Both the position numbers and the translations under genes were made by a program. The notes under the pieces were generated by a model, which saw nothing but the letters and a program-made list of their open reading frames with translations, had not been told where the DNA came from and ran no database searches. From NCBI GenBank assembly GCA_964645535.1, contig CAZYCQ010000022.1, positions 1 through 27,299 of the forward strand: a stretch of 27,299 bases of DNA, read 5' to 3'. Positions 6,928-27,299 of this stretch are shown piece by piece. The stretch's first letter is position 1. Every line of letters starts with the position of its first letter. This DNA comes from an uncultured archaeon (GTDB lineage Archaea; Asgardarchaeota; Heimdallarchaeia; Heimdallarchaeales; Kariarchaeaceae).

Positions 6928-8016
6928 TTACTTGAGCTTTTTGAGCACTTGGCGGGAATACTGCGAGGCATCCAACTTCAATTTTGTGGATAACCGGCTG
7001 ACCGGTTTGGAGCAACGGGGGCACAGGTTGGATTCCCTTCTCCACTCCTTCAGTTCCTGTTCATGGGCAGGGAACTTACAATGTGGACAGAGTACGATTT
7101 TGCCATCGGAGGGGCGAATCGGTTCATAGCAGATGGTGCAGGCCAAATCTTCTTTTCTCACATGGCCTGTCGGCATGAGATTCGTGCCTGTCTTCTTTCC
7201 ATTTCCATTCGTTCGACGTTGGGGGCGGACTTGAATTTCTCTTCCTGGTTCAATTGTCGCAATGTCTGTTCTTCTGGGTCTAGAGGGTATTCCATTGCTT
7301 CTTCGTGATCTTCTTGGGGATCTACGGAGATAGTCATTAAGGAATGCATTGGAATGGGCTGCACGGAATGTCTCCTCTTGCCGTCGGCGTGATTGTCTGC
7401 GAAGGATGTGTCTTCCAAGTACATAGTATTTGACCGTAGAATAAAGCCAGAAGGCAACCGCCATCAGTGCCAATGGATCAATGATGTGTGTTTTCCATCC
7501 TATGTAAAGGAAGGACATGGCCATTGCGGAATGAACCAGAAATGGCACCAGCCGTGTCCTGAACAGTTTCCGATGCACTGCGAATCCCAGCCATTCTTTT
7601 CTATGGATTTTCCAGAAGATGTAGGACTGAAACAGCAAATGAGGTAGTCCCAACAAAATTGTATGGAAGAAAATCAGCCTGTAGCCGTTTATCAGAATTA
7701 CACTTCTCTCCACAAGGATAGGTTCCATTGTTTCCCCAACAAGGAAACCCAAAAGAATCACCACATATGGCAACCCGACGAACTGGGAGCTTGCAAGGAT
7801 TGAATCATACCTTTGGAAATATCTCCGTTCCCAGAGAATCCTTGAAGAGACCATAGTCCATACGGTAAGGTAGGCAATTAGGATTGTTCTTGACATGTTC
7901 CCTGCCAGCAGGTAGAGGAATGCAATGACCGAACCGATCAGCCAGATGGCCACATACATCTCTATTGTATTGAATAGCCGTTCGATTCTATCAAGCAACC
8001 CCTCAAACATTGTCAT
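6928..8016 (-). CDS. Membrane-embedded RING-type E3 ligase (multi-TM N-terminus, Arg-rich linker, C-terminal RING)
   Basis: About six TM segments; C-terminal CTIC..CPHCKFPAHEQELKEW..LCPRC at ~7013-7140; located in the E1/E2/JAMM operon; ATGA overlap with the JAMM stop. Confidence 0.85.
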   Translation of the reverse strand: MTMFEGLLDRIERLFNTIEMYVAIWLIGSVIAFLYLLAGNMSRTILIAYLTVWTMVSSRILWERRYFQRYDSILASSQFVGLPYVVILLGFLVGETMEPILVERSVILINGYRLIFFHTILLGLPHLLFQSYIFWKIHRKEWLGFAVHRKLFRTRLVPFLVHSAMAMSFLYIGWKTHIIDPLALMAVAFWLYSTVKYYVLGRHILRRQSRRRQEETFRAAHSNAFLNDYLRRSPRRSRRSNGIPSRPRRTDIATIEPGREIQVRPQRRTNGNGKKTGTNLMPTGHVRKEDLACTICYEPIRPSDGKIVLCPHCKFPAHEQELKEWRRESNLCPRCSKPVSRLSTKLKLDASQYSRQVLKKLK

Positions 8017-8699
8017 TCCTCCATCTGATTCATTAACAGCGATATGGCCGCAAAAGCTGCTTCAGGAGTCATGCCTTCTACCTCGGATTCGAGTCGATAA
8101 TACTCATGCCGTCCTGACAGCCTGAACACTTCAAATCCATAGGATTCCTTGGTGATCATTGTGGGGTCGATGACAATCGCGATCGAGCTTTCCCAAAGGG
8201 CTTGGTATCGTGCTTGGGTTCTGACATCATCGATGCTCAGATAGGGGGAATAGGATGGATGGGAATGAGCCCAGCCTACGATAAATTCGTTTTCTTGCTT
8301 TTTGCGGAGAATATCCATTACAGGTTCTGCCTCCAGAATATTCACGCTTACTGCATTGCCATGTCCTACTGGCCAATATTGACTAACAATGATCCGTTCA
8401 ATGGGAGTGTTCTCATCAACAAGGGTGCCTGTCAGCAATCCTATGACTTCCACCCATTGGGAGGGATGCCGTTTGGGATTGGCAAACTTGATGGCATGAG
8501 CGGCCATATTCAGATAGGCTTCGGACTTCATGACAACTTGGGACTGACGGGGGATGGACAAATCATCCCTTTCATTGATGTCCGCCTTATCAGTGTTGTG
8601 CTCTCCGGTGGCCGTCGGTTCGAGTGCCATGAGGCTTTCGATGCGTTCGATCCTATCCAGGATTTCCCGATATTCCGGAGGCATTTTTTCCGAGTTCAT
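8013..8699 (-). CDS. JAMM/MPN+ metallo-isopeptidase (Rpn11/CSN5-like deubiquitinase or Ubl maturase)
   Basis: EVIGLL..VGWAHSHPSYSPYLSIDD (E..HxH-x7-S-x2-D intact), then TQARYQ and IAIVIDP. Confidence 0.93.
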   Translation of the reverse strand: MNSEKMPPEYREILDRIERIESLMALEPTATGEHNTDKADINERDDLSIPRQSQVVMKSEAYLNMAAHAIKFANPKRHPSQWVEVIGLLTGTLVDENTPIERIIVSQYWPVGHGNAVSVNILEAEPVMDILRKKQENEFIVGWAHSHPSYSPYLSIDDVRTQARYQALWESSIAIVIDPTMITKESYGFEVFRLSGRHEYYRLESEVEGMTPEAAFAAISLLMNQMEE

Positions 8700-8702
8700 A
8701 AG

Positions 8703-9224
8703 TCACCAATATTCCTTTGCGTATTTTTTGTTGATTGCCTTGGCCTTCTTCATGAACTTCTTCCGATCATTGAGATATTGCAAGGCAGCTTCCTTATTGA
8801 AGACATCCTTGGGGTTGATGAAAGCCCCATCGATATTGAACATTGCCAAAATTGAATGGATGACCGTTCCGATGTTTTTCGAAGGGCTCCAGCCGTTGGG
8901 CTTGCCTACCAGTTCCTGATCAACCAAGGCCAGACAAATGTTTCTTTTTCCTTGGTATTCCTTGGGGTTGGGCCAAAAGTTGGGATGCCAGATGGGGGTG
9001 TGCAACCTGACAAATGGTGGCTTATATGGGTAATTCGGTCCATATTTGATTTCAAGTTTGTACTTGCCGCCTTCATAGGGTGTCCCTTTTGGTCCCTTGA
9101 ACCCAATGGCCAAATGTTCTATCGATTTCTTTGTTGGAGAGAACGATTTGACCTGATCGATCACTCCTTTTTTGTACAGGTGCTTCAGAATTTCATAATC
9201 TTTGATGATTCTTTTCTTTCTCAT
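8703..9224 (-). CDS. Ubiquitin-conjugating enzyme E2 (UBC fold)
   Basis: GPKGTPYEGG, YPYKPPFVR, WHPN, catalytic ICL, WSP, NKEAA. Confidence 0.95.
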   Translation of the reverse strand: MRKKRIIKDYEILKHLYKKGVIDQVKSFSPTKKSIEHLAIGFKGPKGTPYEGGKYKLEIKYGPNYPYKPPFVRLHTPIWHPNFWPNPKEYQGKRNICLALVDQELVGKPNGWSPSKNIGTVIHSILAMFNIDGAFINPKDVFNKEAALQYLNDRKKFMKKAKAINKKYAKEYW

Positions 9225-10507
9225 GGTTTTCGTCCCTCATTGTACTTGATTTTGACATAGATGTCGATATCCTCCTCATTTCGGATGAAGCCAAGGGCGT
9301 AAAGGGTTTCCCCTTGTCTGATGTTTTCCTCATGAAGTGTCCGGTCAAGGGCAAGGGGTTCCATGTCTTCGCCATCCATCCTGTAATAACTTGGATCCAG
9401 GTCTGGATTCCTTAGGTACCCCTCTTTCCGAAGCAGAAGCTCGAGATTTTCTATGACGAGGGATCTTGGAACCTTTATTGAGAGGATTTTGGGTGCCTGC
9501 GGTCCGCAGAGCTGACAATCTGGGTTGGGTGGTTTCTTCAGGTAGAAGAACTTTCCTGTCACGCCATTGTATATGGTATATTCTAAATTGACTTGACCAA
9601 TGTTTCTCCCATGCAATTGATGGAGTGCCTTTATCGCTTCCTGTGATTGGATGGACGCAATGACCGCATTTATGGTTATCACTGTTGGCTCATGGAAATC
9701 TATCATGGAAACTGCCTCATCCAATGTGAACTCCTTCTCGTGGGGGAAGTGTTCTCTCACCAGTCGGTTCGCATAGTTGAGCACCTTTTCCATCTCTTCT
9801 CTGTTTGAGGTGTCCGGTTCTCTTCCAGTCTGGGATTCAAAGAAGAGTTGTCCTTTCAAAAGGCAATGGGATCGTTTTCTGGGAACTCCTACAAGAGTGC
9901 ATGCCGCAAGCGTTTCCCTTTCCCGTTCCTTCAGTGGATCACATTGCAGGCAGGCATTGGCTTTGGGCATGTAGGTGTAGATATGTCCATAGTATGTCAT
10001 GGTGCCTCCATCAATCAGCGGCTTGCCATTGTGCACTGCTTGCCGTGCAAGGTCCCTTCTGGCCTCTACATTGTCCAATCCTGATATGTAGAGATCCACT
10101 TCTTCGAAGATCATTGGATCAAGGGATTGAAGTTTCCCGTGGTGAGGGATGTAACTTCCATAGGGATTCACTTCCTTCAATTTCCTCGCTGCCGCGACCG
10201 CTTTGGATTCCCCTTCCTCTGCACCGATAAAAAGAATCTGGCGGTTGAGGTTACTGTATTCAATCACATCCATGTCCACAAGATGGAGGGTTCCCACTCC
10301 TGCCATGGCAAGATTCTTGGCAATTTCTGTACCAAGCCCTCCAATTCCTGCGATGAGTACTGATGATCGCTTTAGGGTTTCTTGATCCCATCCAGGAAGG
10401 CGAAACTGACGATCCAAACGTTTGCGTTCGTCAGGTGTGAGACTGTCGGAAAAGAAATTTGATCTGTTTTTGTCCATATTATTCACGTCCAGGGTGTCGG
10501 TCTTCAC
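9221..10507 (-). CDS. Ubiquitin-like activating enzyme E1 (ThiF/MoeB fold, Uba3-like catalytic Cys domain, probable C-terminal ubiquitin-fold domain)
   Basis: RLDRQ, GIGGLG, DMDVIEYSNLNRQILF, LDN, DGGT, Zn pairs CLQC and CQLC, and CTLVGVPRKRSHC resembling Uba3 CTIAxxPRxPEHC. The GTG start overlaps the upstream TGA. Confidence 0.93.
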   Translation of the reverse strand: MKTDTLDVNNMDKNRSNFFSDSLTPDERKRLDRQFRLPGWDQETLKRSSVLIAGIGGLGTEIAKNLAMAGVGTLHLVDMDVIEYSNLNRQILFIGAEEGESKAVAAARKLKEVNPYGSYIPHHGKLQSLDPMIFEEVDLYISGLDNVEARRDLARQAVHNGKPLIDGGTMTYYGHIYTYMPKANACLQCDPLKERERETLAACTLVGVPRKRSHCLLKGQLFFESQTGREPDTSNREEMEKVLNYANRLVREHFPHEKEFTLDEAVSMIDFHEPTVITINAVIASIQSQEAIKALHQLHGRNIGQVNLEYTIYNGVTGKFFYLKKPPNPDCQLCGPQAPKILSIKVPRSLVIENLELLLRKEGYLRNPDLDPSYYRMDGEDMEPLALDRTLHEENIRQGETLYALGFIRNEEDIDIYVKIKYNEGRKP

Positions 10508-10824
10508 CAGACCCCTGCCGTGGAGAAAGGTATGATGAGCATGGTGTCGCCATCCTCAACATCATAATTGTCGACGATGTCATCATCATCACAGGTTCTT
10601 CCTCCAATCACGATATGGAATGACTGGGTGTCTGGGAGTCCGAACAGGGTGGCAAGGGTCTGCTTGATGTCACGGATGGAGGCATCGCGGGCAATCTCCA
10701 GCGTCTCCTGCCGATGGCTTGGGCCGACTGTACTTTCGACTTGGATCCGTACCTTCCCTGAAGGGGGTAACTCTTCATCCAAGCCATCAATGTCCAGTTC
10801 TTCAAATTCTCTGTCTTCGCTCAT
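10504..10824 (-). CDS. Ubiquitin-like protein 2 (acidic N-terminal extension, ends STAG-VW)
   Basis: Beta-grasp pattern SIRDIKQTLATLFGLP..FHIVIGGRTCDDDDIVDNYDVEDGDTMLII. ATG 10824 chosen by similarity to the Ubl1 N-terminus; the alternative is 10875. Confidence 0.88.
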   Translation of the reverse strand: MSEDREFEELDIDGLDEELPPSGKVRIQVESTVGPSHRQETLEIARDASIRDIKQTLATLFGLPDTQSFHIVIGGRTCDDDDIVDNYDVEDGDTMLIIPFSTAGVW

Positions 10825-10871
10825 AACTAACCTTGCCCAATACAAGGTAATGAACGTTTCCCACAGAGGAT

Positions 10872-11216
10872 TCATTTGCCTGCCGTTGAGACAGGTATCA
10901 GGAGAAGGGAGTCTCCATCCTCAACCCCGTAATTGTCGAGGGAATCATCCGGATCACAAGTGCGACCTGCATGGGAGATATGGAATTCATCTGGAGGCAA
11001 TCCAAAAATCTGTCCCACCGTATACTTGAGATCCCTGATGGGGGCGTCTTTGGCCACAACCAGCTTCTCCTGCTTCTGGTTTGGACCAACCGTGCTCTGG
11101 AAATACACCGTCACCTTTTTTCCCGCAGGGGTCTTGGAGGTGGCGGGTGTCTTCGACTTTATTTCATTGACCAAAAGGTCATCATCTTCAAATGACAAGT
11201 CTTCAAACTCGCTCAT
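10872..11216 (-). CDS. Ubiquitin-like protein 1 (acidic N-terminal extension, ends STAG-K)
   Basis: PIRDLKYTVGQIFGLPPDEFHISHAGRTCDPDDSLDNYGVEDGDSLLLI matches the ubiquitin/SUMO 'TLxDYxIxDGxTIHL' pattern. ATG 11216 is preceded by AGGTGAT. Confidence 0.9.
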   Translation of the reverse strand: MSEFEDLSFEDDDLLVNEIKSKTPATSKTPAGKKVTVYFQSTVGPNQKQEKLVVAKDAPIRDLKYTVGQIFGLPPDEFHISHAGRTCDPDDSLDNYGVEDGDSLLLIPVSTAGK

Positions 11217-11289
11217 AGTAATCACCTGGGTTGTGGACCATGCAAACACATGATCACAACAACACACAAACATATATTACATTCCAAAC

Positions 11290-15568: not shown

Positions 15569-16132
15569 TCATCCATGAGTTTCAAGCATTTTTTCGATCA
15601 ACCATTCAAAGGCTTCCTTAACCCCATCTCCTGTCAAGGCGGATGTCTCAAATGAGCCGATCTCGATCTCCTTGTTGTCAATGTTTTCCTTGACATAATC
15701 AATGATCTGTTGCTTTTCCTTTTCAAAGAGCTTTCTTTCTCCTTCCAAATCGATCTTGTTGAAAATTATGGCAAGCTGCATATGCTTGATGATCCCTTGG
15801 CGATTGAAATCATCAATCCAAGGTTGGACATAGGTTTGGAGGTCTCCATCTGTAGTTACATCAAGCACAAGAAAGGCACCGTTGGTTCCTCGATAGTACA
15901 TGGCTCGATTTTTTTGGAAATTGGCATCTCCTGCGATGTCCCATATGACTAGGTCATGCTCTTCATTTCCTTTGCGGAACTTCATATAGGAGAGGTCAAC
16001 TCCAATCGTCTTCTTGTACTCACCTGCAAATCCAATACCCATAAACCGTTTTCTCAATGTGGTCTTGCCAACTCTTTCATTGCCCGTCAGAACCAGTTTG
16101 AAGATATATCGTTCCTCTCCAGGGACATTCAT
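15569..16132 (-). CDS. Ras-superfamily (Rab-like) small GTPase
   Basis: G1 GNERVGKT, G2 YKKTIGVD, G3 WDIAGD, YYRG, G4 NKID, G5 ETSAL; no C-terminal Cys. Confidence 0.92.
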   Translation of the reverse strand: MNVPGEERYIFKLVLTGNERVGKTTLRKRFMGIGFAGEYKKTIGVDLSYMKFRKGNEEHDLVIWDIAGDANFQKNRAMYYRGTNGAFLVLDVTTDGDLQTYVQPWIDDFNRQGIIKHMQLAIIFNKIDLEGERKLFEKEKQQIIDYVKENIDNKEIEIGSFETSALTGDGVKEAFEWLIEKMLETHG

Positions 16133-18299: not shown

Positions 18300-19022
18300 T
18301 TATTCATCTTCTGCATTTTCCCATTCGACATTGATTTCCTGATCTTCTTCAAGTTCTTCTGCAATTTCCTCTATTTCCTCGCCTACCTCTTCCACGATAT
18401 CTGCAACCGATTCAATGGTCTCATCAATCTGATCCACTGTTTCCTCTATGGCTTCCTCAATATTTTCAATGACCTCTTCAATGATGTCTTGACCGTCCTC
18501 CCCGAACTCATCAAGATCTACCTTGATCTCAAGATTGGCAAACCCTTTCTTCAATTGTTCTCCAATCTTTGCCAAGGCTTCCGCCTTGATTTTCAGCAAC
18601 TTTTCTTTTTCATCGATATTAAGGTCCTTGATATTGATGTGAAGATCCTCAAGTGGATCAAATGCTTTCTCGACCACCTGCATGGCATTTTCCATGACTG
18701 TTGTTACCACCTTTTGGATCTCTGAAATCAGGGGGAATAGTGTGGGAACCACTCCCATGGATGTTTTTAATGCTTGTTCCCTAATTTTCTCCTTGCTTTT
18801 GCGAATATTTTTCCTCGCCTCATCAAGATTTTTTTTCAAATTCTCATTGATCTCCTCCCTGATTTTCTCAGCAAAATCCTCCAGGTCCTCTCCGTCCATT
18901 CCTATTGTTGTCACGGTTTCAGGTTCCATGTGTGGGGGGATTCTCCTATTCTGAACCTCTTCCTTTATCTGGTTGATCCGTTCCCTTATGCGTTCAAGGT
19001 CATCATCAATGGTGCTCATCAC
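18300..19022 (-). CDS. Very acidic coiled-coil protein of unknown function
   Basis: Heptad-like helices with an E/D/I/V-rich C-terminal third; TTTTATAA about 20 nt upstream. Confidence 0.75.
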   Translation of the reverse strand: MMSTIDDDLERIRERINQIKEEVQNRRIPPHMEPETVTTIGMDGEDLEDFAEKIREEINENLKKNLDEARKNIRKSKEKIREQALKTSMGVVPTLFPLISEIQKVVTTVMENAMQVVEKAFDPLEDLHINIKDLNIDEKEKLLKIKAEALAKIGEQLKKGFANLEIKVDLDEFGEDGQDIIEEVIENIEEAIEETVDQIDETIESVADIVEEVGEEIEEIAEELEEDQEINVEWENAEDE

Positions 19023-19139: not shown

Positions 19140-19193
19140 TGATTACTATGATATGTTAATTATAATACATCACTTATCATAGGGGTGCGGCAC

Positions 19194-21788
19194 ATGGTAA
19201 ATCTAAACAAATTCACAACAAAATCACAGGAAGCCATCAGTCAGGCACAGACTTTGGCAACACAGTACGATCACGCATACTTGGACGAGTTCCATCTCGT
19301 CAAGGCTATGATGGATGAGGACAATGCCCTCATCGACCAGATCATCAACAAGGCCGGTATTAATTCCGACCTCTTCTACAACAAGATCAAACAGCGATTG
19401 GAAGGGAAACCCAAGGTTTCCGGGGCATCTCTCCAAATATCGCAGACCTTGAGCAAGATTCTTGCAAATGCCGAAAAGATCGCTCAACAACTCGGTGACC
19501 AATATGTCTCCGTTGATGTCCTCCTGTTAAGTGTCATCAAGGAATCTCAGGACATTCGGAGAATCATCAAGCAGATCAATCCCGGTGTAGACTACGAAGT
19601 CTTCCTCAAGGTGGTCAAGGAAATCAGGGGGACACAAAAAGTGGACAGTCAAGATGCAGAAGAAAAATTCCAGGCATTGGAAAAATACACCATCGATTTC
19701 ACAAAACTCGCAGCAGAAGGAAAACTTGATCCTGTCATCGGCAGGGATGATGAAATAAGACGGGTCATCCATGTTCTTTCACGCAGGACCAAGAACAACC
19801 CTGTGCTCATCGGTGAGCCAGGTGTCGGAAAGACTGCCATTGTTGAAGGGCTTGCCCAAAGAATTGTGAAGGGTGACGTCCCTGAATCACTGCGGGATGT
19901 CCGGCTCCTTGCACTTGATATGGGAAGTCTCATCGCGGGCGCAAAATACCGAGGAGAGTTCGAAGAACGGCTCAAAGCAGTTCTCAATGAAATCGAGCAA
20001 TCCAACGGCAAGATTATCCTCTTCATTGACGAAGCCCACACCATTGTAGGGGCTGGAGCATCTGAAGGTTCATTGGATGCCTCTAACCTGCTGAAACCCA
20101 TGTTGGCTAGGGGTAAACTCCGAACCATCGCGGCAACGACTTACGATGAGTACCGCAAATACTTCGAAAAGGATGCAGCTCTTGAACGTCGATTCCAACC
20201 GGTTTTCGTGGATCAACCCTCTGTCGAGGACACCATTTCCATCCTGAGAGGGCTCAAAGACAAGTATGAGGTCCATCACGGTGTAAGGATCCAAGACAAT
20301 GCCCTAGTGGCCGCTGCCACTCTCTCCCACCGATACATCACCGACAGGTTCCTTCCAGATAAGGCCATTGATCTCATTGATGAAGCTGCATCAAAGATTG
20401 CCATGGAACTTCAATCCATGCCTGAGGAACTTGAGAAAGTCCAAAGACGGATCAACCAGCTTGAGATCGAACGCTCCGTGGTGAAGAAGGAAAGCGATGC
20501 TGCCTCTCAGAGGAGATTGAAGCAGATCGAAGAGGAACTTGAGAAAGAGAAACAGGAGTTTGCCCGAATCAAGGCTCAATGGGAACAGGAAAAAGAGGTC
20601 TTTGATCAGATTGCCAAAATCAAGGGTGAAATCGAGGATCTCAAGATCGAAGCTGAAAGGGCACAACGGGCAGGCGACCTTGAAACTGTCGGTCGCATCA
20701 TGTATGGTCAGATCCCTCAATTGCAGGCCAAATTGGAAGAATTGCAGGCCAAAGCGGATGAGATGCGGAAGAGCGGCAAAACCTTCCTGAGGCAAGAAGT
20801 GAGCGAAGAGGACATTGCCGAAGTTGTTTCACGTTGGACTGGCATCCCGGTGTCCAAGATCACCCAAGAGGAAGCCGACAAGATTCTCCACATGGAGGAG
20901 TACCTACGCAAACGCGTCAAGGGACAGGATGAAGCAATTGAGGCACTGGCCCAAACCATCCGTCGATCCCGAGCTGGGCTATCCTCTGGAGAGAGACCTC
21001 TGGGATCATTCATGTTCCTCGGTCCCACAGGTGTTGGTAAGACTGAGCTGGCAAAGGCATTGGCTGAATTCCTCTTCGACTCAGAGAAATACATGGTTCG
21101 AATTGACATGAGTGAGTATATGGAAAAACATTCCGTAGCTCGGTTAATCGGTGCACCTCCTGGCTATGTAGGTCATGAGGAAGGAGGCCAGTTGACTGAG
21201 GCGGTTCGCAGGCATCCATACTCCGTCATCCTGTTTGACGAGATTGAAAAGGCTCACCAAGATGTCTTCAATATCCTCTTGCAGGTGTTGGATGATGGAA
21301 GGTTGACAGATTCAAAAGGACGTACCGTTGATTTCACCAACACGGTCATTATCTTCACCTCCAACATAGGTAGCCAACTCATCTTCGAGATGACCGGAAG
21401 GGGCGAGAGCTATGAATCCATCAAGAAAGCAGTCACCGATGAATTGAAGCACTTCTTCCGGCCGGAGTTCCTCAACAGGATCGATGAGATCGTTGTCTTC
21501 CACTCCCTCTCAGAGGATCTCATGGTGGATATCGTCAAGATCCAACTTGAAAGACTTTACAAACGTGTGGAGGCACAGGGTCTGAAGCTGAAGGTTGGTG
21601 ATGATGTCATCCATTATCTTGCCAAGGTCGGCTATGATCCTTCCTATGGTGCCCGCCCCTTGAAACGAGCCATCGCCAAGTATCTGGAGACGCCCTTGGC
21701 GAACTATCTCCTGTCTCACGAACTGAAGGAAAACACGGTTCTTGAGGCAAGGATGGATGGTGACAGAGTGGTCATCAGCCATTCATAA
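19194..21788 (+). CDS. clpB: ATP-dependent disaggregase ClpB
   Basis: Clp N domain, NBD1 GEPGVGKT and LFIDE, long coiled-coil M domain, NBD2 GPTGVGKT and [17 protein letters not shown]. Confidence 0.97.
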
Positions 21789-21828: not shown

Positions 21829-22962
21829 TCATTCAATAATATCTTCCATCAGGATTTTCCGGAGTTTTGCTTGTTTTGCCAGATATGCCCTTCTGCCAGC
21901 AAGGGTTGAATAGACGACAAACAGTACAGGAATTGCATTGAGGACGATAAAGACTGCACTTCTTGTCTTTGAAAAGTAACTTATCTCCAAGGAATTCACT
22001 ACAATGCGATATTCATTGAAGACTGTAGGATCGGAGATATTGGCTTTCGGAATCCAGCGGTATGACAGATGTCGATATGGCTTGTCCGGTCCTCTGGTCA
22101 GTGTAATCCGTTTCTCATCGGTTTTTAGCCAATTATCAAAAAAATTGGTGTTTCCCCTTGTTGGATCTGCTGGAAGCATACCCACCCCTTTCACATAGAA
22201 CATCGGATAGGCATGGGCTGCTGCGCCATCATCCGTTCCATTAAATCCTGTTGCAAAATCTGCCAGCCATGCGGTATGCTCAATGGCAGGAATTCCTCGG
22301 GCTCGAGATAAGGCTATGAACAGGGTTGTGTATTCATCACAATCTCCATAACCGTTCCTGAGGGCAAAACTTGCGCCCCTGATCTGGCTCAATAGCTTGT
22401 ACCGTATATAGGTCGATGAAAAGTTGTACGAGAGATAGGCGATATCCAATGGATTGTCGGAATCGGGGAATGTCCCTGCCACACTCTGGACTGCCGGATC
22501 GGTTGTATCCTCCAAGGGATTATATGCCATGAATAGTTTATAGAGGGGGTCGTTTTCATCATATGGAAATATTTTCAGATTGGCATTCACATAATCCAGC
22601 AGGTTAAGCGTCACGTTTGCCTTAATCGTCACCTTGAATGTCTGATTGACCTGAAAATCAGTGAAATCATATTGGATGAAGGAATTGTTGTACTCGTCCG
22701 TGGTTGTGAAATTCGGTGGCACCGAGATTTGTATTCCCTTTACTTCTTGAACCGGTTCCCAACTCTTCAACAGTGCCAATCGGATTGAAACGCGTGTCAG
22801 GTTCAACGGTCCCTCATTCTTGACCACATAGCTGTATTGAAGCTGGAAATCTGCTTTTCCTTGTAGGATATCGTCATTTTCTTCAAGGTAGAGGAAGACA
22901 AACCCACTCATGATAACAAGGAATGCCAAGCCAGCTACAAGAATCTTGTTTTCCAATTTCAT
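21829..22962 (-). CDS. Membrane-anchored transglutaminase-like protein with intact Cys-His-Asp triad
   Basis: GYGDCDEYTTLFIALSRARGIPA, AHAYP, PADPT; N-terminal signal/anchor and C-terminal TM with basic tail; ATGA overlap with the upstream fusion gene. Confidence 0.9.
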   Translation of the reverse strand: MKLENKILVAGLAFLVIMSGFVFLYLEENDDILQGKADFQLQYSYVVKNEGPLNLTRVSIRLALLKSWEPVQEVKGIQISVPPNFTTTDEYNNSFIQYDFTDFQVNQTFKVTIKANVTLNLLDYVNANLKIFPYDENDPLYKLFMAYNPLEDTTDPAVQSVAGTFPDSDNPLDIAYLSYNFSSTYIRYKLLSQIRGASFALRNGYGDCDEYTTLFIALSRARGIPAIEHTAWLADFATGFNGTDDGAAAHAYPMFYVKGVGMLPADPTRGNTNFFDNWLKTDEKRITLTRGPDKPYRHLSYRWIPKANISDPTVFNEYRIVVNSLEISYFSKTRSAVFIVLNAIPVLFVVYSTLAGRRAYLAKQAKLRKILMEDIIE

Positions 22963-25900
22963 TGTTCATCCTCCTGTTTCAGCATTTTGATAGTGCCCTG
23001 CCAATCCTTTTCCTTCCAGACCTTCCCAAGCTTGATCCCCATCGAAGCACATGCCAAAGGCGATTTCAATCTGTAGTCGATGGCAAGTTCCTCAATGAAA
23101 TCAAGTCGGTTCAACAGACTTGCCTGATTGATGTTCTGGATTTCCAATCCAGGTCTTTTGTTTATTTCCAGGACATAGATCTGTGTCTCGTCGCCCCTTT
23201 TTCCGAGGACGATATCCACTCCTGCATATCCCAGTCCACTGGATTTGTGTGCCAAACAGGCCACTGCAAGGATCTGCTTCCAATATGGAATCTTTCGTCC
23301 GATGATCCGTGATCTTGTGTCAGGATGCATTTCAACTGGATGCTGTTTCCATTCGGCATGGAAGATCTCTCCCGTTTCCATATCCACTCCTGCACCAATG
23401 GCTCCCTGTTTGAGGTTTGCCTTTCCATCACTTTCACTTGTGGGAAGTCTTGCCATGGCCATTACCGGTACTCCTCTAAAGACGATGACCCGAATATCTG
23501 GCAATCCTGTAGAAATTTCTGCCATGAAGTCATCAACAACTATCTTTTCCTCAATGATACAGATGTCATTTTCCGCAAGGGTCTGTGTAGAAAGATATTC
23601 CCCTTGGACAATTCTTTGGATCTCATTGGATATGGCCTGTGGTGCATATGTTTCACCGCCTATCAGAAAGTTTCCCCTCTCGTCCCTTTTTTGGACAACT
23701 ATGATCCCCATTCCTCCCAAACTTTGGGTAGGCTTAATGACAAATCCATTCTCAAACAGGCTCTCCTTGACAAGCCGCTCCATAATGGCAGGAATCTCTC
23801 TCATTTCGGTTACAATTCCATAGAGGTCTGGTGTGGGGACATTCCATTTCTCGAATTGAAGCTTCATGTCAAACTTGTTGATAAGCTGAAACACTTCTGG
23901 AGGATTGTATTTTGCGATATAGTTTCGGTTCCTGATGAGAATGCTCAGGGGTTGCTCCCCCTTTTTGAAGAGCCGCATGAACCTTCTTGTGTCCATGAAG
24001 GTATATTTTCTCCCTCTTCCATAGAACAAGATGATCGCAACCAAAAGCACCCAGATTTCTGGTGTCAAGGCAACAAAACGAACCCATGTATCATTGCTCA
24101 TGAGGTAATAGGCTCCCCAAGTAACAACCAGACTTGCAAGAAGGCGAGTGAATGCCATGTAATGGTCGTTTTGCTCGACATTGCCGACGTACCGGTCAGT
24201 GATCCATGGCAGGATGATAATTGGCACGAAAAGGGCTGAACTGAGAAATGGAATTCGGTAGATTTCACCAAGTAGTTCCATCACTCCAAGGTATGTGATA
24301 TTGAAAACCATCATGATCCCAATTCTGAAACCGACAGGGAAACCATAAGGTGATATCAAAACCCTTACAAGATACAGGAGTGTGAAAATGTTCAAAAAGA
24401 GTATCGTGCCCCAGAAGGGACCAATCTGAATCATCGAGATGACGAGAACACTTGGTGCAAAAAGTCCGTATGTCTCCAATCCCAAGGAATACTTGGTGAA
24501 CAAAATAAGAATGATCGCAAGTAGAAACCTGAACAGAAATAGGCTACGTTCCAGTACGAAAGTCGCCTCGAAAAGAAATAATCTCCCAATAGTGGCCAAT
24601 CCAATCATCAGCATGATGACAATAAATGTGTTGAAGATTTCCGTATCCGTCCAGTTCCCCTTTGATTTCGGAGTGTACATGATTTTTATTTCCTCCTTTG
24701 AGTAAGTTCGTGACCTACTGTATTTTGTGATAGCATCGGTCATACCCACAAGGGTCAAAAGATAGGGAATGACCCGTATTCCAAATTCAATCCAGTTTCT
24801 CTGAATTTGGCTTGCTCCTTCAGAAATGCCGATACTGACAAGATAGAACCATTCGGTTTTTGCAATATTGCCGGAATCATCAAACGCGACTATTCTGAAC
24901 TCAACCAATCCCTTTTCCTTGAAAGTACCCAACTCATATTTGAACAGGCCGTTTTCATCATATGTGCCATTAATGGTCATGGATCGGTTTACCGTTGCAG
25001 AATACCAGTTGATCTCAACATATTGAGCGGCAATATGGCTTTCTGGATCAATGATTTTGGCTCTTACAACATAGGTTCCTGAAAATTGCTTATAGTTGTC
25101 AAGATCAGGAATGAAGCTCTGTGTTATGAGAGGGGAAAACACATCTGGTAGTCCACCTTCCACATCTTGATTGGATCTTTCCCCTTCAGTAGCTTCATAT
25201 ATCAACCTCAACGCGAAAAAGGTTGAAGATACCCTTGATGTGAATCCTGGTCTCAACCCATACCCTCCATCCTCGTTTTTCAGGAAGTCGACAAAGGAAA
25301 GCACACTCTCCCAATCTATGCTTGCATTCAGCATTTTCTGAAGTGCAACTGCATGATATGTTGCCTCCATAGTTGGCTGTGTTCTATCAAGTGTATTGAC
25401 ATACCCTCCAGAGGGTTTTCTGTATTGTTCCAAGGTTTGGAGAATCCTTGTCGAATTGACCTGGTAACCCAACCAAAGGAGCAATCGGGTTGCCCTGAAT
25501 GTGGAAATCACCGAGGGTGAGGACAATGGCGAATTCTTGAAAAATCCTGTATTTGGATCTTGTTGCCGGAGAAGAAAATTTTTCAGATTGGTACGATTGA
25601 AGCTAGATGTTTCAAATGCATCAAGCAATTTCAGAATCGACATTCCCCAATAGGTATGGGTGATGTAAGCCAATTTTGCCCCCGGAAATTGGCCAATCCC
25701 TCCAGTTTCCACTTCTGATTTTTCAACGAAGGATACCATCTCTTGGTGATTGAGTAAAGGATCCCCAAGTGCTCGGAGTGCCAAGATTCCATAAAATGTA
25801 TACTTTATCCGTGCCGAAGCTCCTGGTCGTATGCCAAACCCGCCATCATCTGTTGAAAATGCATCCTCTAGAAATTTTCTGACCTGTGGATCTATGATTG

Positions 25901-27083
25901 AGTTGTTTTCCAGCAATCTTGATGCCAAAACAGCCTGTGCAGTGTGGATCATCGTTGGTACATCGCTTGGATAATCTCCGAATCCATAGGTGGGCGTAGG
26001 GGGAAAAAGCACAAATTCTAATGCACCAGAGAGGTCGACCGTATGTGGAAGCAAGCCTAATTTTTGGAGGTTTGCAATTATTCGAATGGAAAAGAAGGTA
26101 CTTTCTATATTTGGGGATGCGTCATTGCTGCTGGAAAGAAATCCAGAATTGGGTTCCTGATTTCCAATGATGTAATTGAACGCATTTTCAAGAAAATCCG
26201 TTGGAAATTCTCCTAAAAGGTTGGGTGCGTTTTCTCTGACCAATAGGTAGTACTCGATTGCCCTGACAGAAAATCCTGTTCGGGGCAGTCCTCCAATGTA
26301 CCCGGCAACTCCTCCGTTAGGGGAAGTCAAGGTGGAAATGAATCGAACAACATTGGTCAGATATGGATCGGTCTGGTTGAGAAGCACAAATGAGGCAAAA
26401 GCATAGTATGAAGCAAGTAGCTCTGCTGTTCCATTGGTCACCTCAGAATATCCACTTCCTGAAGTAATGAAGACAGGTTCCACATAGTTTCCCCTGAGGT
26501 AATCATCTACCCCTGTGGTATTCAGTTGCCGTTCAAAAGACCCAAAATGGTCATTCAACCATTTAGAGATCTGCAGGGCTCGATAAGTAGAAGTCACATC
26601 TGGTACGTCCCAATTCAAAAGGGGAAAGAACCCTCCTTCTGAAGTCTTCAGAAGGTTAAGAAAATCGATGACTTTCTGTGCCTCTGTCTTGTTGAACCAG
26701 TTTGGATATTCTGTCAGGGCGAATAGGCTTATCGCTTGAAAAGTAGACTCCATTGAAGGGCGTGACCCTTTCCAATTGGCCCAATGTCCATTTTCATAAG
26801 CAGATCGCAGGAATTCATTACCTGCCTCTGTGAGATTTGCAATCTGATCCACAAAAATCGGTTCTCCAACTTCCAAAAAGTTGTATATTGAACCCAAAAC
26901 ATAGAAGACATCGTCCATTGCTCTGAATATCTGTGAACCATCGTCTTGTGAGAACTTAATGAAATGCCCTGCATTGAATGTTGGGGTCACTCCTGAAATG
27001 TCACTTGCCCAAACCTCTTGCCTCGGCTCTGCATTCATTGAGAGCGATAGCAGGATGATTATGGCAAGGACTTTGCGACTCAT
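22959..27083 (-). CDS. Fusion: signal peptide + prenyltransferase/squalene-oxidase-type repeats + beta-rich domain + 7TM_transglut/CapC-like membrane domain + alpha-L-glutamate ligase-related (RimK-like) ATP-grasp
   Basis: About 10 repeats of GG(F/Y)..(S/Y)T(F/Y)xA(L/I) at ~25200-26830. Membrane domain with GLETYGLFAPSVL and LFVPIIIL at ~24020-24640. ATP-grasp motifs RNRNYIAKYN, FVIKP..GGMGI, PDIRVIVFRGVPVMAMARLPT.ESDGKANLKQGA, GLGYAGVDIV, LEINKRPGLEIQNIN at ~23100-23945. Confidence 0.88.
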   Translation of the reverse strand: MSRKVLAIIILLSLSMNAEPRQEVWASDISGVTPTFNAGHFIKFSQDDGSQIFRAMDDVFYVLGSIYNFLEVGEPIFVDQIANLTEAGNEFLRSAYENGHWANWKGSRPSMESTFQAISLFALTEYPNWFNKTEAQKVIDFLNLLKTSEGGFFPLLNWDVPDVTSTYRALQISKWLNDHFGSFERQLNTTGVDDYLRGNYVEPVFITSGSGYSEVTNGTAELLASYYAFASFVLLNQTDPYLTNVVRFISTLTSPNGGVAGYIGGLPRTGFSVRAIEYYLLVRENAPNLLGEFPTDFLENAFNYIIGNQEPNSGFLSSSNDASPNIESTFFSIRIIANLQKLGLLPHTVDLSGALEFVLFPPTPTYGFGDYPSDVPTMIHTAQAVLASRLLENNSIIDPQVRKFLEDAFSTDDGGFGIRPGASARIKYTFYGILALRALGDPLLNHQEMVSFVEKSEVETGGIGQFPGAKLAYITHTYWGMSILKLLDAFETSSFNRTNLKNFLLRQQDPNTGFFKNSPLSSPSVISTFRATRLLLWLGYQVNSTRILQTLEQYRKPSGGYVNTLDRTQPTMEATYHAVALQKMLNASIDWESVLSFVDFLKNEDGGYGLRPGFTSRVSSTFFALRLIYEATEGERSNQDVEGGLPDVFSPLITQSFIPDLDNYKQFSGTYVVRAKIIDPESHIAAQYVEINWYSATVNRSMTINGTYDENGLFKYELGTFKEKGLVEFRIVAFDDSGNIAKTEWFYLVSIGISEGASQIQRNWIEFGIRVIPYLLTLVGMTDAITKYSRSRTYSKEEIKIMYTPKSKGNWTDTEIFNTFIVIMLMIGLATIGRLFLFEATFVLERSLFLFRFLLAIILILFTKYSLGLETYGLFAPSVLVISMIQIGPFWGTILFLNIFTLLYLVRVLISPYGFPVGFRIGIMMVFNITYLGVMELLGEIYRIPFLSSALFVPIIILPWITDRYVGNVEQNDHYMAFTRLLASLVVTWGAYYLMSNDTWVRFVALTPEIWVLLVAIILFYGRGRKYTFMDTRRFMRLFKKGEQPLSILIRNRNYIAKYNPPEVFQLINKFDMKLQFEKWNVPTPDLYGIVTEMREIPAIMERLVKESLFENGFVIKPTQSLGGMGIIVVQKRDERGNFLIGGETYAPQAISNEIQRIVQGEYLSTQTLAENDICIIEEKIVVDDFMAEISTGLPDIRVIVFRGVPVMAMARLPTSESDGKANLKQGAIGAGVDMETGEIFHAEWKQHPVEMHPDTRSRIIGRKIPYWKQILAVACLAHKSSGLGYAGVDIVLGKRGDETQIYVLEINKRPGLEIQNINQASLLNRLDFIEELAIDYRLKSPLACASMGIKLGKVWKEKDWQGTIKMLKQEDEQ

Positions 27084-27086
27084 GGC

Positions 27087-27299
27087 TCATCTCCGGATTT
27101 TCAGGATCAAAAGGGTAACCAGCGTGACCCCAATCGACCCTGCAACTACCAATACAAAAATGAGTTGCTGATTGTTTCCTGTTTGAATGGGTTGGGTCGG
27201 TGTTGAATTGACACTTGATGTGCTGGTTGTTGTATTCATCACCGTTTGACTTGTATTGGTGGGCTGTGCTGTGTCCGTTGGCTGGCTTGTATTGGTGGG
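27087..27299 (-). CDS. 3' end of a cell-surface protein: S/T/Q/P-rich linker, TM anchor, basic tail (5' part outside window)
   Basis: Not in the ORF track. Hand translation from 27299: PTNTSQPTDTAQPTNTSQTVMNTTTSTSSVNSTPTQPIQTGNNQQLIFVLVVAGSIGVTLVTLLILKIRR*. The stop lies 3 nt before the fusion ATG. Confidence 0.8.
   Translation of the reverse strand, partial: PTNTSQPTDTAQPTNTSQTVMNTTTSTSSVNSTPTQPIQTGNNQQLIFVLVVAGSIGVTLVTLLILKIRR
27250..27299. repeat. Intragenic repeat with 36-bp period
   Basis: CTTGTATTGGTGGG at 27250-27263 and 27286-27299, encoding PTNTS twice. Confidence 0.7.

Follow-up and report, generated by a model that had tools for sequence, protein, structure and literature searches.

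The question raised by a stretch of DNA from an uncultured archaeon of the Kariarchaeaceae (Asgardarchaeota, Heimdallarchaeia; assembly GCA_964645535.1, contig CAZYCQ010000022.1, positions 1 to 27,299, which as a whole is here called the window) is why a single gene on its minus strand should join two barrels of prenyltransferase type, predicted to lie outside the cell, to a membrane domain and an ATP-grasp ligase, and what such a protein could contribute to the cell. Its membrane and ligase parts have counterparts in the RloABC system of Pseudomonas aeruginosa, in which RloA is a secreted retropepsin, RloB an inactive transglutaminase domain joined to a 7TM membrane domain, and RloC an ATP-grasp (PMC12239564). 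We infer, with a confidence that falls a little short of even, that the fusion and its operon partners constitute a membrane synthase-exporter of a polyglutamate-type peptide, which an adjacent transglutaminase-fold (TG) protein would trim or anchor outside, and for which the barrels would serve as surface scaffolds or acceptors.

The elements on which the argument depends are these:

22959..27083, minus strand: the fusion gene, 1374 amino acids (aa), with signal peptide, two alpha/alpha barrels, beta domain, anchor helix, linker, RloB-type membrane domain and RloC-type ATP-grasp
27027..27083, minus strand: putative signal peptide, residues 1-19
26049..26978, minus strand: barrel 1, residues ~36-345, a prenyltransferase-type (alpha/alpha)6 barrel (from the model and the orthologue alignment)
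25179..26048, minus strand: barrel 2, residues ~346-635, without zinc ligands (from the model and the alignment)
24804..25148, minus strand: beta-sandwich stalk domain, residues ~646-760
24714..24785, minus strand: anchor helix TM0, residues ~767-790 (from the model), by which the barrel protein is naturally anchored at its C-terminus where the genes are split
24678..24698, minus strand: Shine-Dalgarno-like heptamer (24692-24698) followed, 11 nt on, by the in-frame ATG that encodes Met802 (24678-24680), at the split point in relatives
24012..24647, minus strand: 7TM_transglut membrane domain, residues ~813-1024, eight predicted helices with both ends inside
23079..23966, minus strand: cytoplasmic ATP-grasp ligase, residues ~1040-1335 (from Pfam, NCBIfam and structure searches)
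21829..22962, minus strand: TG-fold membrane protein, 377 aa, with N- and C-terminal helices, a beta domain and a core with C208-H250-D266
27087..27299, minus strand: 3′ end of the upstream paralogous barrel gene, encoding a Ser/Thr-rich linker, a membrane helix and a basic tail; the rest lies beyond the window, up to position 29689 of the contig (G000:C22)

The fusion gene and its domains

From 22959 to 27083 the minus strand is a single uninterrupted open reading frame with no stop, along which Pfam places Prenyltrans (121 bits, 4 stretches), then 7TM_transglut and then ATPgrasp_ST. The initial annotation, made from the letters of the sequence, had read this as a genuine single chain, and the fusion is indeed real and conserved: besides the query, 26 full-length fused orthologues with 39-77% identity were found in NCBI, ENA and Logan assemblies, some of them labelled Heimdall-, Thor- or Odinarchaeota; in 6 further genomes where the match is full-length the frame is likewise open throughout; and a membrane-ligase profile search was positive in 17 of the 400 genomes of the phylum, mostly for the fused form. 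A short hydrophobic N-terminus, found in the query and in the majority of the orthologues, is a putative signal peptide. That an error of assembly or of gene calling joined two adjacent genes might be suspected, since split forms are known and the seam resembles a gene boundary, and the annotation had itself pointed to separate parts together with an artefact as grounds for abandoning the fusion; the parts are separate in some relatives, there is no sign of an artefact, and the full-length fused relatives, which come from independent samples and assemblers, refute this explanation and leave it practically no probability.

The predicted structure of residues 36-765 (predicted local distance difference test, pLDDT, 91.6; predicted template modelling score, pTM, 0.88) consists of two six-repeat barrels and a beta domain, in such a way that the repeats first estimated at about ten are 12 in all, and the beta-rich domain recognized at the same time is all-beta in the model, with a fold that may be Ig-like. 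The structures nearest to the barrels are the beta subunits of protein prenyltransferases (Z 29.7, root-mean-square deviation (rmsd) 2.8, 296 aligned), which are also reached by a hidden Markov model (HMM) match (E 8e-20), and more distantly the barrels resemble those that process glycosides. Ribophorin II appears in faint Pfam or cluster labels on relatives only, and is missing from the top 50 structural matches of the barrels. As had been noticed at the outset, the repeat region has no cysteine and the zinc site is missing: Cys occurs in the fusion only at 1175, 1276 and 1345, residues 1-1174, and with them the ectodomain, have none, the Asp-x-Cys and His zinc ligands of the protein prenyltransferase beta subunits are absent, and in the HMM alignment the RabGGTase-beta ligands D238/C240/H290 align with T377/I379/Y428. 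No conserved copy of the DxDD motif of class II terpene cyclases was found among the 12 repeats, and the match to SQHop (squalene-hopene type) is below its cut-off (E 0.028). Catalysis by the barrels in the manner of prenyltransferases or terpene cyclases was rejected, the catalytic motifs being absent; a role as scaffold or polymer guide is plausible. Barrel 1 has invariant acidic and aromatic residues (D57, W104, E112, Q116, W158, D159, D162, E214), and barrel 2 invariant basic and aromatic ones (K427, Y428, R437, Y473, W479, R530). The abundance of sequons remarked on earlier is a property of the family, whose ectodomains carry 11.6 against 7.4 expected (24 of the 27 proteins exceed expectation) and whose cytoplasmic parts carry 1.6 against 1.6; the query alone, with 9 against 5.8 expected, is not significantly enriched (p=0.11).

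Nine membrane helices are predicted, not the seven first supposed, namely the anchor helix (767-790) and eight after the linker, and the model of residues 766-1374 (pLDDT 81.7) accordingly runs from anchor helix through disordered linker and eight helices to the ATP-grasp. The linker is Lys/Arg-rich, disordered (pLDDT <50 at 794-810) and poorly conserved. The assignment of the bundle to 7TM_transglut (PF14402) holds, with 50.5 bits against a cut-off of 25 at residues 855-1038 and a match in all 27 orthologues, and the residues G868, G873, F875, P877, R907, R920, P954, D963, P1008 and E1009 are common to the fusion and bacterial RloB, with which the conserved arginines of the inside face are also shared. 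The Lys/Arg counts per loop, in order 5.7, 0.3, 1.6, 0.0, 2.4, 0.6, 1.4, 0.3 and 6.9, alternate between high values predicted inside and low values predicted outside, and would therefore place the barrels outside and the ligase inside; in other words, the barrels are predicted to be extracellular, on the opposite side of the membrane from the ATP-grasp, which is the topology that the initial annotation needed. A sequence search for solved structures returned none matching the membrane domain and no solved RloB, and structural searches with the membrane-ligase part were dominated by the ATP-grasp, their matches speaking for the ligase fold only; a feature search of the ESM Atlas yielded nothing usable.

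Homology of the membrane domain to CapC/PgsC, which inspection by eye had suggested, was tested three times, did not rise above reversed or block-shuffled controls (HHalign score 18.9, probability 1.5; reversed profile 17.9; block-shuffled up to 25.4) and is not used as evidence, although these results leave room for a remote relationship. The CapC-type family PF14102 was not matched anywhere in the query genome.

The ligase matches ATPgrasp_ST (PF14397) over residues 1051-1331 with 187.5 bits against a cut-off of 31.4, and K1074, K1117, E1178, D1196, R1198, R1212, N1223, D1290, E1306 and N1308 are invariant in the 27 orthologues; judged by its residues, the ATP-grasp active site is intact. 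Its top NCBIfam match is TIGR02291, alpha-L-glutamate ligase-like (E 6e-68), its best Foldseek match is RimK, a poly-alpha-glutamate synthetase, and the closest ESM Atlas models are again alpha-L-glutamate ligase-like proteins; ArgX (Z 16.6, rmsd 3.0, 217 aligned) and RimK (Z 16.1, rmsd 3.0, 214 aligned) superpose on it about equally. The partners of this ligase family include hydrolases of the types that act on glutamate peptides, that is, a RimB-like retropepsin (archaeal locus L138), an aspartyl protease and MATCAP, and the hydrolase partner appears to be interchangeable. The ESM Atlas contains proteins from bacteria of the candidate phyla radiation (CPR) type in which a ligase of this family shares a chain with an aspartyl protease or with a MATCAP carboxypeptidase, and one protein (P0142) has 7TM, ligase and S8 peptidase in one chain.

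The operon, the seam and a probable internal start

The fusion does not stand alone. The TG gene adjoins it downstream with a 4-nt overlap with the fusion stop, wherever a locus extends far enough to be read a TG-fold gene comes after the fusion, and members of the fused clade also have a paralogous barrel gene before it; the unit is a three-gene operon of upstream barrel gene, fusion and TG. Of the 17 genomes that have the ligase, 16 also have an orthologue of the TG protein, and in the 17th the contig breaks inside the fusion; none was found in the 383 remaining genomes searched. The upstream gene is interrupted by a 100-N assembly gap (G000:C22:27300-27399) within its tandem-repeat Ser/Thr linker, which shifts its apparent frame, and its true C-terminus is the one read at 27087-27299 of the window. 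A scan for promoters and terminators gave results at chance level.

The alignment of the TG protein to RloB-like proteins runs from its first helix through its core and lies in their N-terminal half (HHalign probability 98.6, E 1.3e-15, 248 columns), and a chain found at L137:6001-8320 (+) (P0140) joins a Ser-type TG, a 7TM domain and the first half of an ATP-grasp, the remaining part of the ligase lying in an overlapping frame (7901-8320) that indicates a frameshift or a sequencing error. This homology, together with such a natural TG-7TM-ligase chain, indicates that RloB has been cut in two here and the TG has not been replaced, so that the proposal of the initial annotation, according to which the toroid takes the place of the inactive transglutaminase domain of bacterial homologs, has to be given up: that domain is the adjacent gene, and its triad is kept. 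C208-H250-D266 is intact in every fused-clade Asgard locus and in L135; across the alignment the catalytic Cys is present in 16 of 20 sequences, with Ser in the outgroup-type L134, L138, L140 and L146. The last of these (G083:C445:1-4555) belongs to an Asgard genome that has the outgroup-type version, with separate 7TM-ligase and Ser-type TG, and not that of the fused clade, possibly through a separate acquisition or a binning error.

A search of 5 Asgard genomes that carry the system (89-93% complete) brought no RloA-type retropepsin to light, nor is there one in the operon, which leaves the TG as the only hydrolase candidate there. A 121-aa RimB-like retropepsin without signal peptide (L138:7433-7798 (+)) ends an operon of barrel, 7TM-ligase and TG in which the TG has Ser for Cys. 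The complex predicted between the TG and residues 640-1045 of the fusion gives weak support to their association, with a score of 0.53 against 0.00 for the best control, runs that agree in at least 65% of contacts and a partner pLDDT of at least 82; the mark it passes is reached by 58 of 80 solved and 2 of 110 mismatched pairs, scores up to 0.60 contain only 7 of the 80 solved pairs and both mismatches, and the halves of split genes tend to pass.

A different kind of evidence comes from the seam between anchor helix and membrane domain. At L029, L030 and L153, which come from independent assemblies, a barrel-beta-membrane-helix protein (820-825 aa) and a 7TM-ligase (556-565 aa) are separate genes 4-21 nt apart, cut at this same seam, the 7TM-ligase genes starting at the position that matches Met802. 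The more distant archaeal-type loci L134, L135, L138 and L140, the last of which is labelled Woesearchaeota, each carry a single barrel gene, with the 7TM-ligase as a gene of its own and a TG, and in L139 the barrel is absent and an S8 peptidase is in its place. In the trees the Asgard clade (Shimodaira-Hasegawa-like approximate likelihood ratio test, SH-aLRT, 100) has the split forms nested within the fused clade, and secondary fission would be the favoured origin for them; the approximately unbiased (AU) test does not reject their placement outside the fused clade (p=0.067) or together (p=0.10).

The fused genes themselves retain the marks of a start at this point. The seam codon is ATG in 14 of 16 fused genes and TTG in one more; the Shine-Dalgarno (SD) energy before it is -5 kcal/mol or lower in 13 of the 14 ATG genes and in 21% of 369 other internal Met codons, with medians of -7.05 and -2.6 kcal/mol respectively; the signal has its maximum within one codon of the seam ATG, where the mRNA is weakly folded, and in most fused genes it is stronger than under synonymous re-coding. 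In the query the value is -10.0, which beats all 30 other internal Met codons and compares with -8.2 and -11.6 at the true starts of the fusion and the TG gene. That the signal has been kept at about 40-50% protein identity suggests that it is in use, so that the gene probably also yields a 573-aa product free of the barrels.

A proposed mechanism and its alternatives

The proposed synthase-exporter can be followed from the inside of the cell to the outside. Behind the RloB membrane domain, in the same chain, comes a cytoplasmic ATP-grasp of RloC/RimK type whose active site is intact; this enzyme would join glutamate into a polyglutamate-type peptide and feed this through the membrane domain, whose conserved inside arginines (K/R864, R907, R920, R964) could guide the polyanion. 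What corresponds to the rest of RloB is encoded by the gene that follows, as a TG-fold protein anchored in the membrane and equipped with the full Cys-His-Asp triad, and the transglutaminase fold serves both cross-linking and hydrolysis. This protein would dock on the membrane domain, cut the emerging chain via a thioacyl intermediate, and then either release the chain or transfer it to a surface amine. The operon also encodes a pair of double-barrel paralogues that are anchored in the membrane, bear sequons of the outside type and lack known catalytic motifs; these would be scaffolds, binders or acceptors of the product, not switches. Finally, with a conserved SD-like signal and ATG at its seam, the fusion gene would give two products, a barrel-tethered form and the barrel-free synthase.

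Several points weigh against this proposal. Glutamate as the substrate is deduced from relatives of the enzyme, the ligase does not reach the TIGR02291 equivalog cut-off for RloC (229 against 314.2 bits), and even for RloC there is no direct demonstration of a polyglutamate product or of a role in osmotic or envelope stress (PMC12239564). Export through the membrane domain would be a further assumption, homology to the polyglutamate translocase CapC being unsupported; barrel 1, with its invariant acidic cavity, might be an enzyme and not a scaffold; and the Ser-substituted TGs of the outgroup show that TG catalysis is dispensable in the wider family. As regards the internal start, the seam signal is not stronger than synonymous re-coding in the query window alone (p=0.2), the seam statistics treat related genomes as independent, so that p-values overstate, the energies use the canonical anti-SD, which may not be the host's own 16S end, and a Lys/Glu/Gly-rich linker is purine-rich anyway.

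The same parts could be arranged otherwise. In an inside-out control parallel to that of LapD/LapG there would be no export: the ligase would glutamylate a cytoplasmic target or the membrane domain, and the resulting state would control an outside TG-fold protease that sheds or remodels the barrel adhesins. The intact triad would suit this arrangement, as would the upstream barrel protein, adhesin-like in its Ser/Thr-rich stalk and C-terminal anchor, and the L138 retropepsin, whose want of a signal peptide fits an inside product; moreover, RimK-type ligases modify cytoplasmic proteins (PMC12239564). It is nevertheless unlikely, because the barrel-ligase-TG operon persists where the TG Cys is Ser, and because the evidence from Pseudomonas points outside the cell for the product: there RloA, the protease that cuts glutamate runs of 8 or more, is secreted and genetically opposes RloBC, the effect of losing rloA being suppressed when rloB or rloC is lost as well (PMC12239564). 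Distinctly unlikely, in turn, is that the ligase puts an amino acid on a lipid, or on a sugar linked to one, held by the membrane domain, with barrels that bind the glycan or isoprenoid and a TG that cross-links surface proteins with the product. The Pfam family is named for a sugar-transfer associated ATP-grasp, the barrels are nearest to isoprenoid-binding prenyltransferases and farther from glycoside-processing barrels, and barrel 1 has its invariant Asp, Glu and Trp residues; against this, in the loci read neither a glycosyltransferase nor a flippase gene occurs as a conserved neighbour, and the ligase is of the RloC type, whose partners are peptidases.

The toroid had been taken at first for a non-catalytic scaffold, guide or sensor gating the ligase through the single chain. 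Its position outside and its lack of a zinc site agree with the former roles, and a barrel that senses an outside ligand would find some favour in the retention of the fusion in several Asgard lineages, in the invariant residues of the barrel cavities and in the transmembrane topology; signalling via a non-covalent membrane complex also remains compatible. But the split relatives and the kept start signal of Met802 mean that the barrel link is dispensable, which argues against a single-chain receptor-ligase, as do the separate genes in all outgroup archaea read, the missing barrel of L139 and the disordered, poorly conserved linker, and we regard such a receptor as very doubtful.

A bolder form of the synthase-exporter, speculative and in our opinion unlikely, is a covalently anchored peptide coat in some Asgard archaea, in which the two-start gene would make a polyglutamate synthase-exporter with or without tethered barrel, and the active TG would transfer the chains onto barrel glycoproteins. 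Were this so, a capsule of protein-linked polyglutamate would be reached by an undescribed route, the "inactive" RloB domain would be seen in its catalytic form, and the chemistry of the Rlo family as a whole would become clear.

Neighbouring genes and known systems

Elsewhere in the window, at 6928-11273 (minus strand), is an Asgard-type ubiquitin operon, a known eukaryotic-signature cluster, which together with the relatives of the fusion points to an Asgard source for the DNA:

10872-11273, minus strand: ubiquitin
9221-10507, minus strand: E1/ThiF
8703-9224, minus strand: E2
8013-8699, minus strand: JAB deubiquitinase
6928-8016, minus strand: membrane RING-like protein (weak zf-RING_2 match, below cut-off)

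A bacterial-type ClpB (19185-21788, plus strand; above the TIGR03346 cut-off) is convergent with the TG gene and divergent from the gene of a 240-aa apolipoprotein-like helical repeat protein (18300-19022, minus strand), and a Ras-family small GTPase (15569-16132, minus strand) lies between an M32 carboxypeptidase and moeA.

For the Asgard archaea, whose surfaces are poorly known, the fusion operon adds a candidate envelope-building pathway, and, if the internal start is used, the persistence of its signal at roughly 40-50% protein identity would clearly exemplify a fused gene from which the ancestral independent part is still made. It also makes the chemistry of RloBC more testable: ligase and membrane domain form a natural 573-aa chain that could be purified by itself, the Asgard TG, whose counterpart in RloB is dead, has its full triad and so offers an enzyme to assay, and the operon supplies candidate surface acceptors.

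The poly-gamma-glutamate capsule system of Bacillus, CapBCAD/PgsBCA, combines a cytoplasmic amide ligase, a membrane translocase and an outside transpeptidase/hydrolase by which the chain is anchored or released; of these, CapB belongs to the Mur-type ligases, and CapD is an Ntn hydrolase, not of the TG fold. The likeness is one of functional analogy only, the Asgard ligase being an ATP-grasp and not a Mur-type CapB, and homology to CapC being unsupported. With RimK/RimB and LysX/ArgX, where its best structural matches lie, the ligase shares the ATP-grasp fold and the catalytic residues, whereas those enzymes are soluble, cytoplasmic and only 16-20% identical, and the Asgard ligase directly follows a membrane domain. 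The beta subunits of RabGGTase, GGTase-I and FTase have the same (alpha/alpha)6 barrel and the same repeat (Z up to 29.7), while the Asgard barrels are tandem, extracellular, membrane-anchored and devoid of Cys and zinc ligands.

RloBC, which is widespread in Proteobacteria and matters for envelope stress, its chemistry being unsolved (PMC12239564), is the closest of these systems. Literature searches, with subscription journals outside their coverage, found no published description of the archaeal one. Common to both are the PF14402 membrane domain with its G-x-x-T-x-G-x-F-x-P motif and Arg residues, a ligase of the same family (PF14397, best match TIGR02291), a homologous TG domain, and a layout with the ligase inside and a hydrolase outside. 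The differences are that in the Asgard system the RloB equivalent is split, its membrane half joined to the ligase and its TG half separate with an intact triad (the RloB model NF052267, an inactive TG fused before 7TM, gives the fusion 27.6 bits against 900), that RloA was not found in the 5 Asgard genomes tested, that two double-barrel surface proteins have been added, one of them fused in front, and that the gene has a conserved internal start signal. Because RloB is split, the TG triad kept, RloA not found and the barrels added, the Asgard system is not RloABC by definition; in its manner of working, it probably resembles RloABC.

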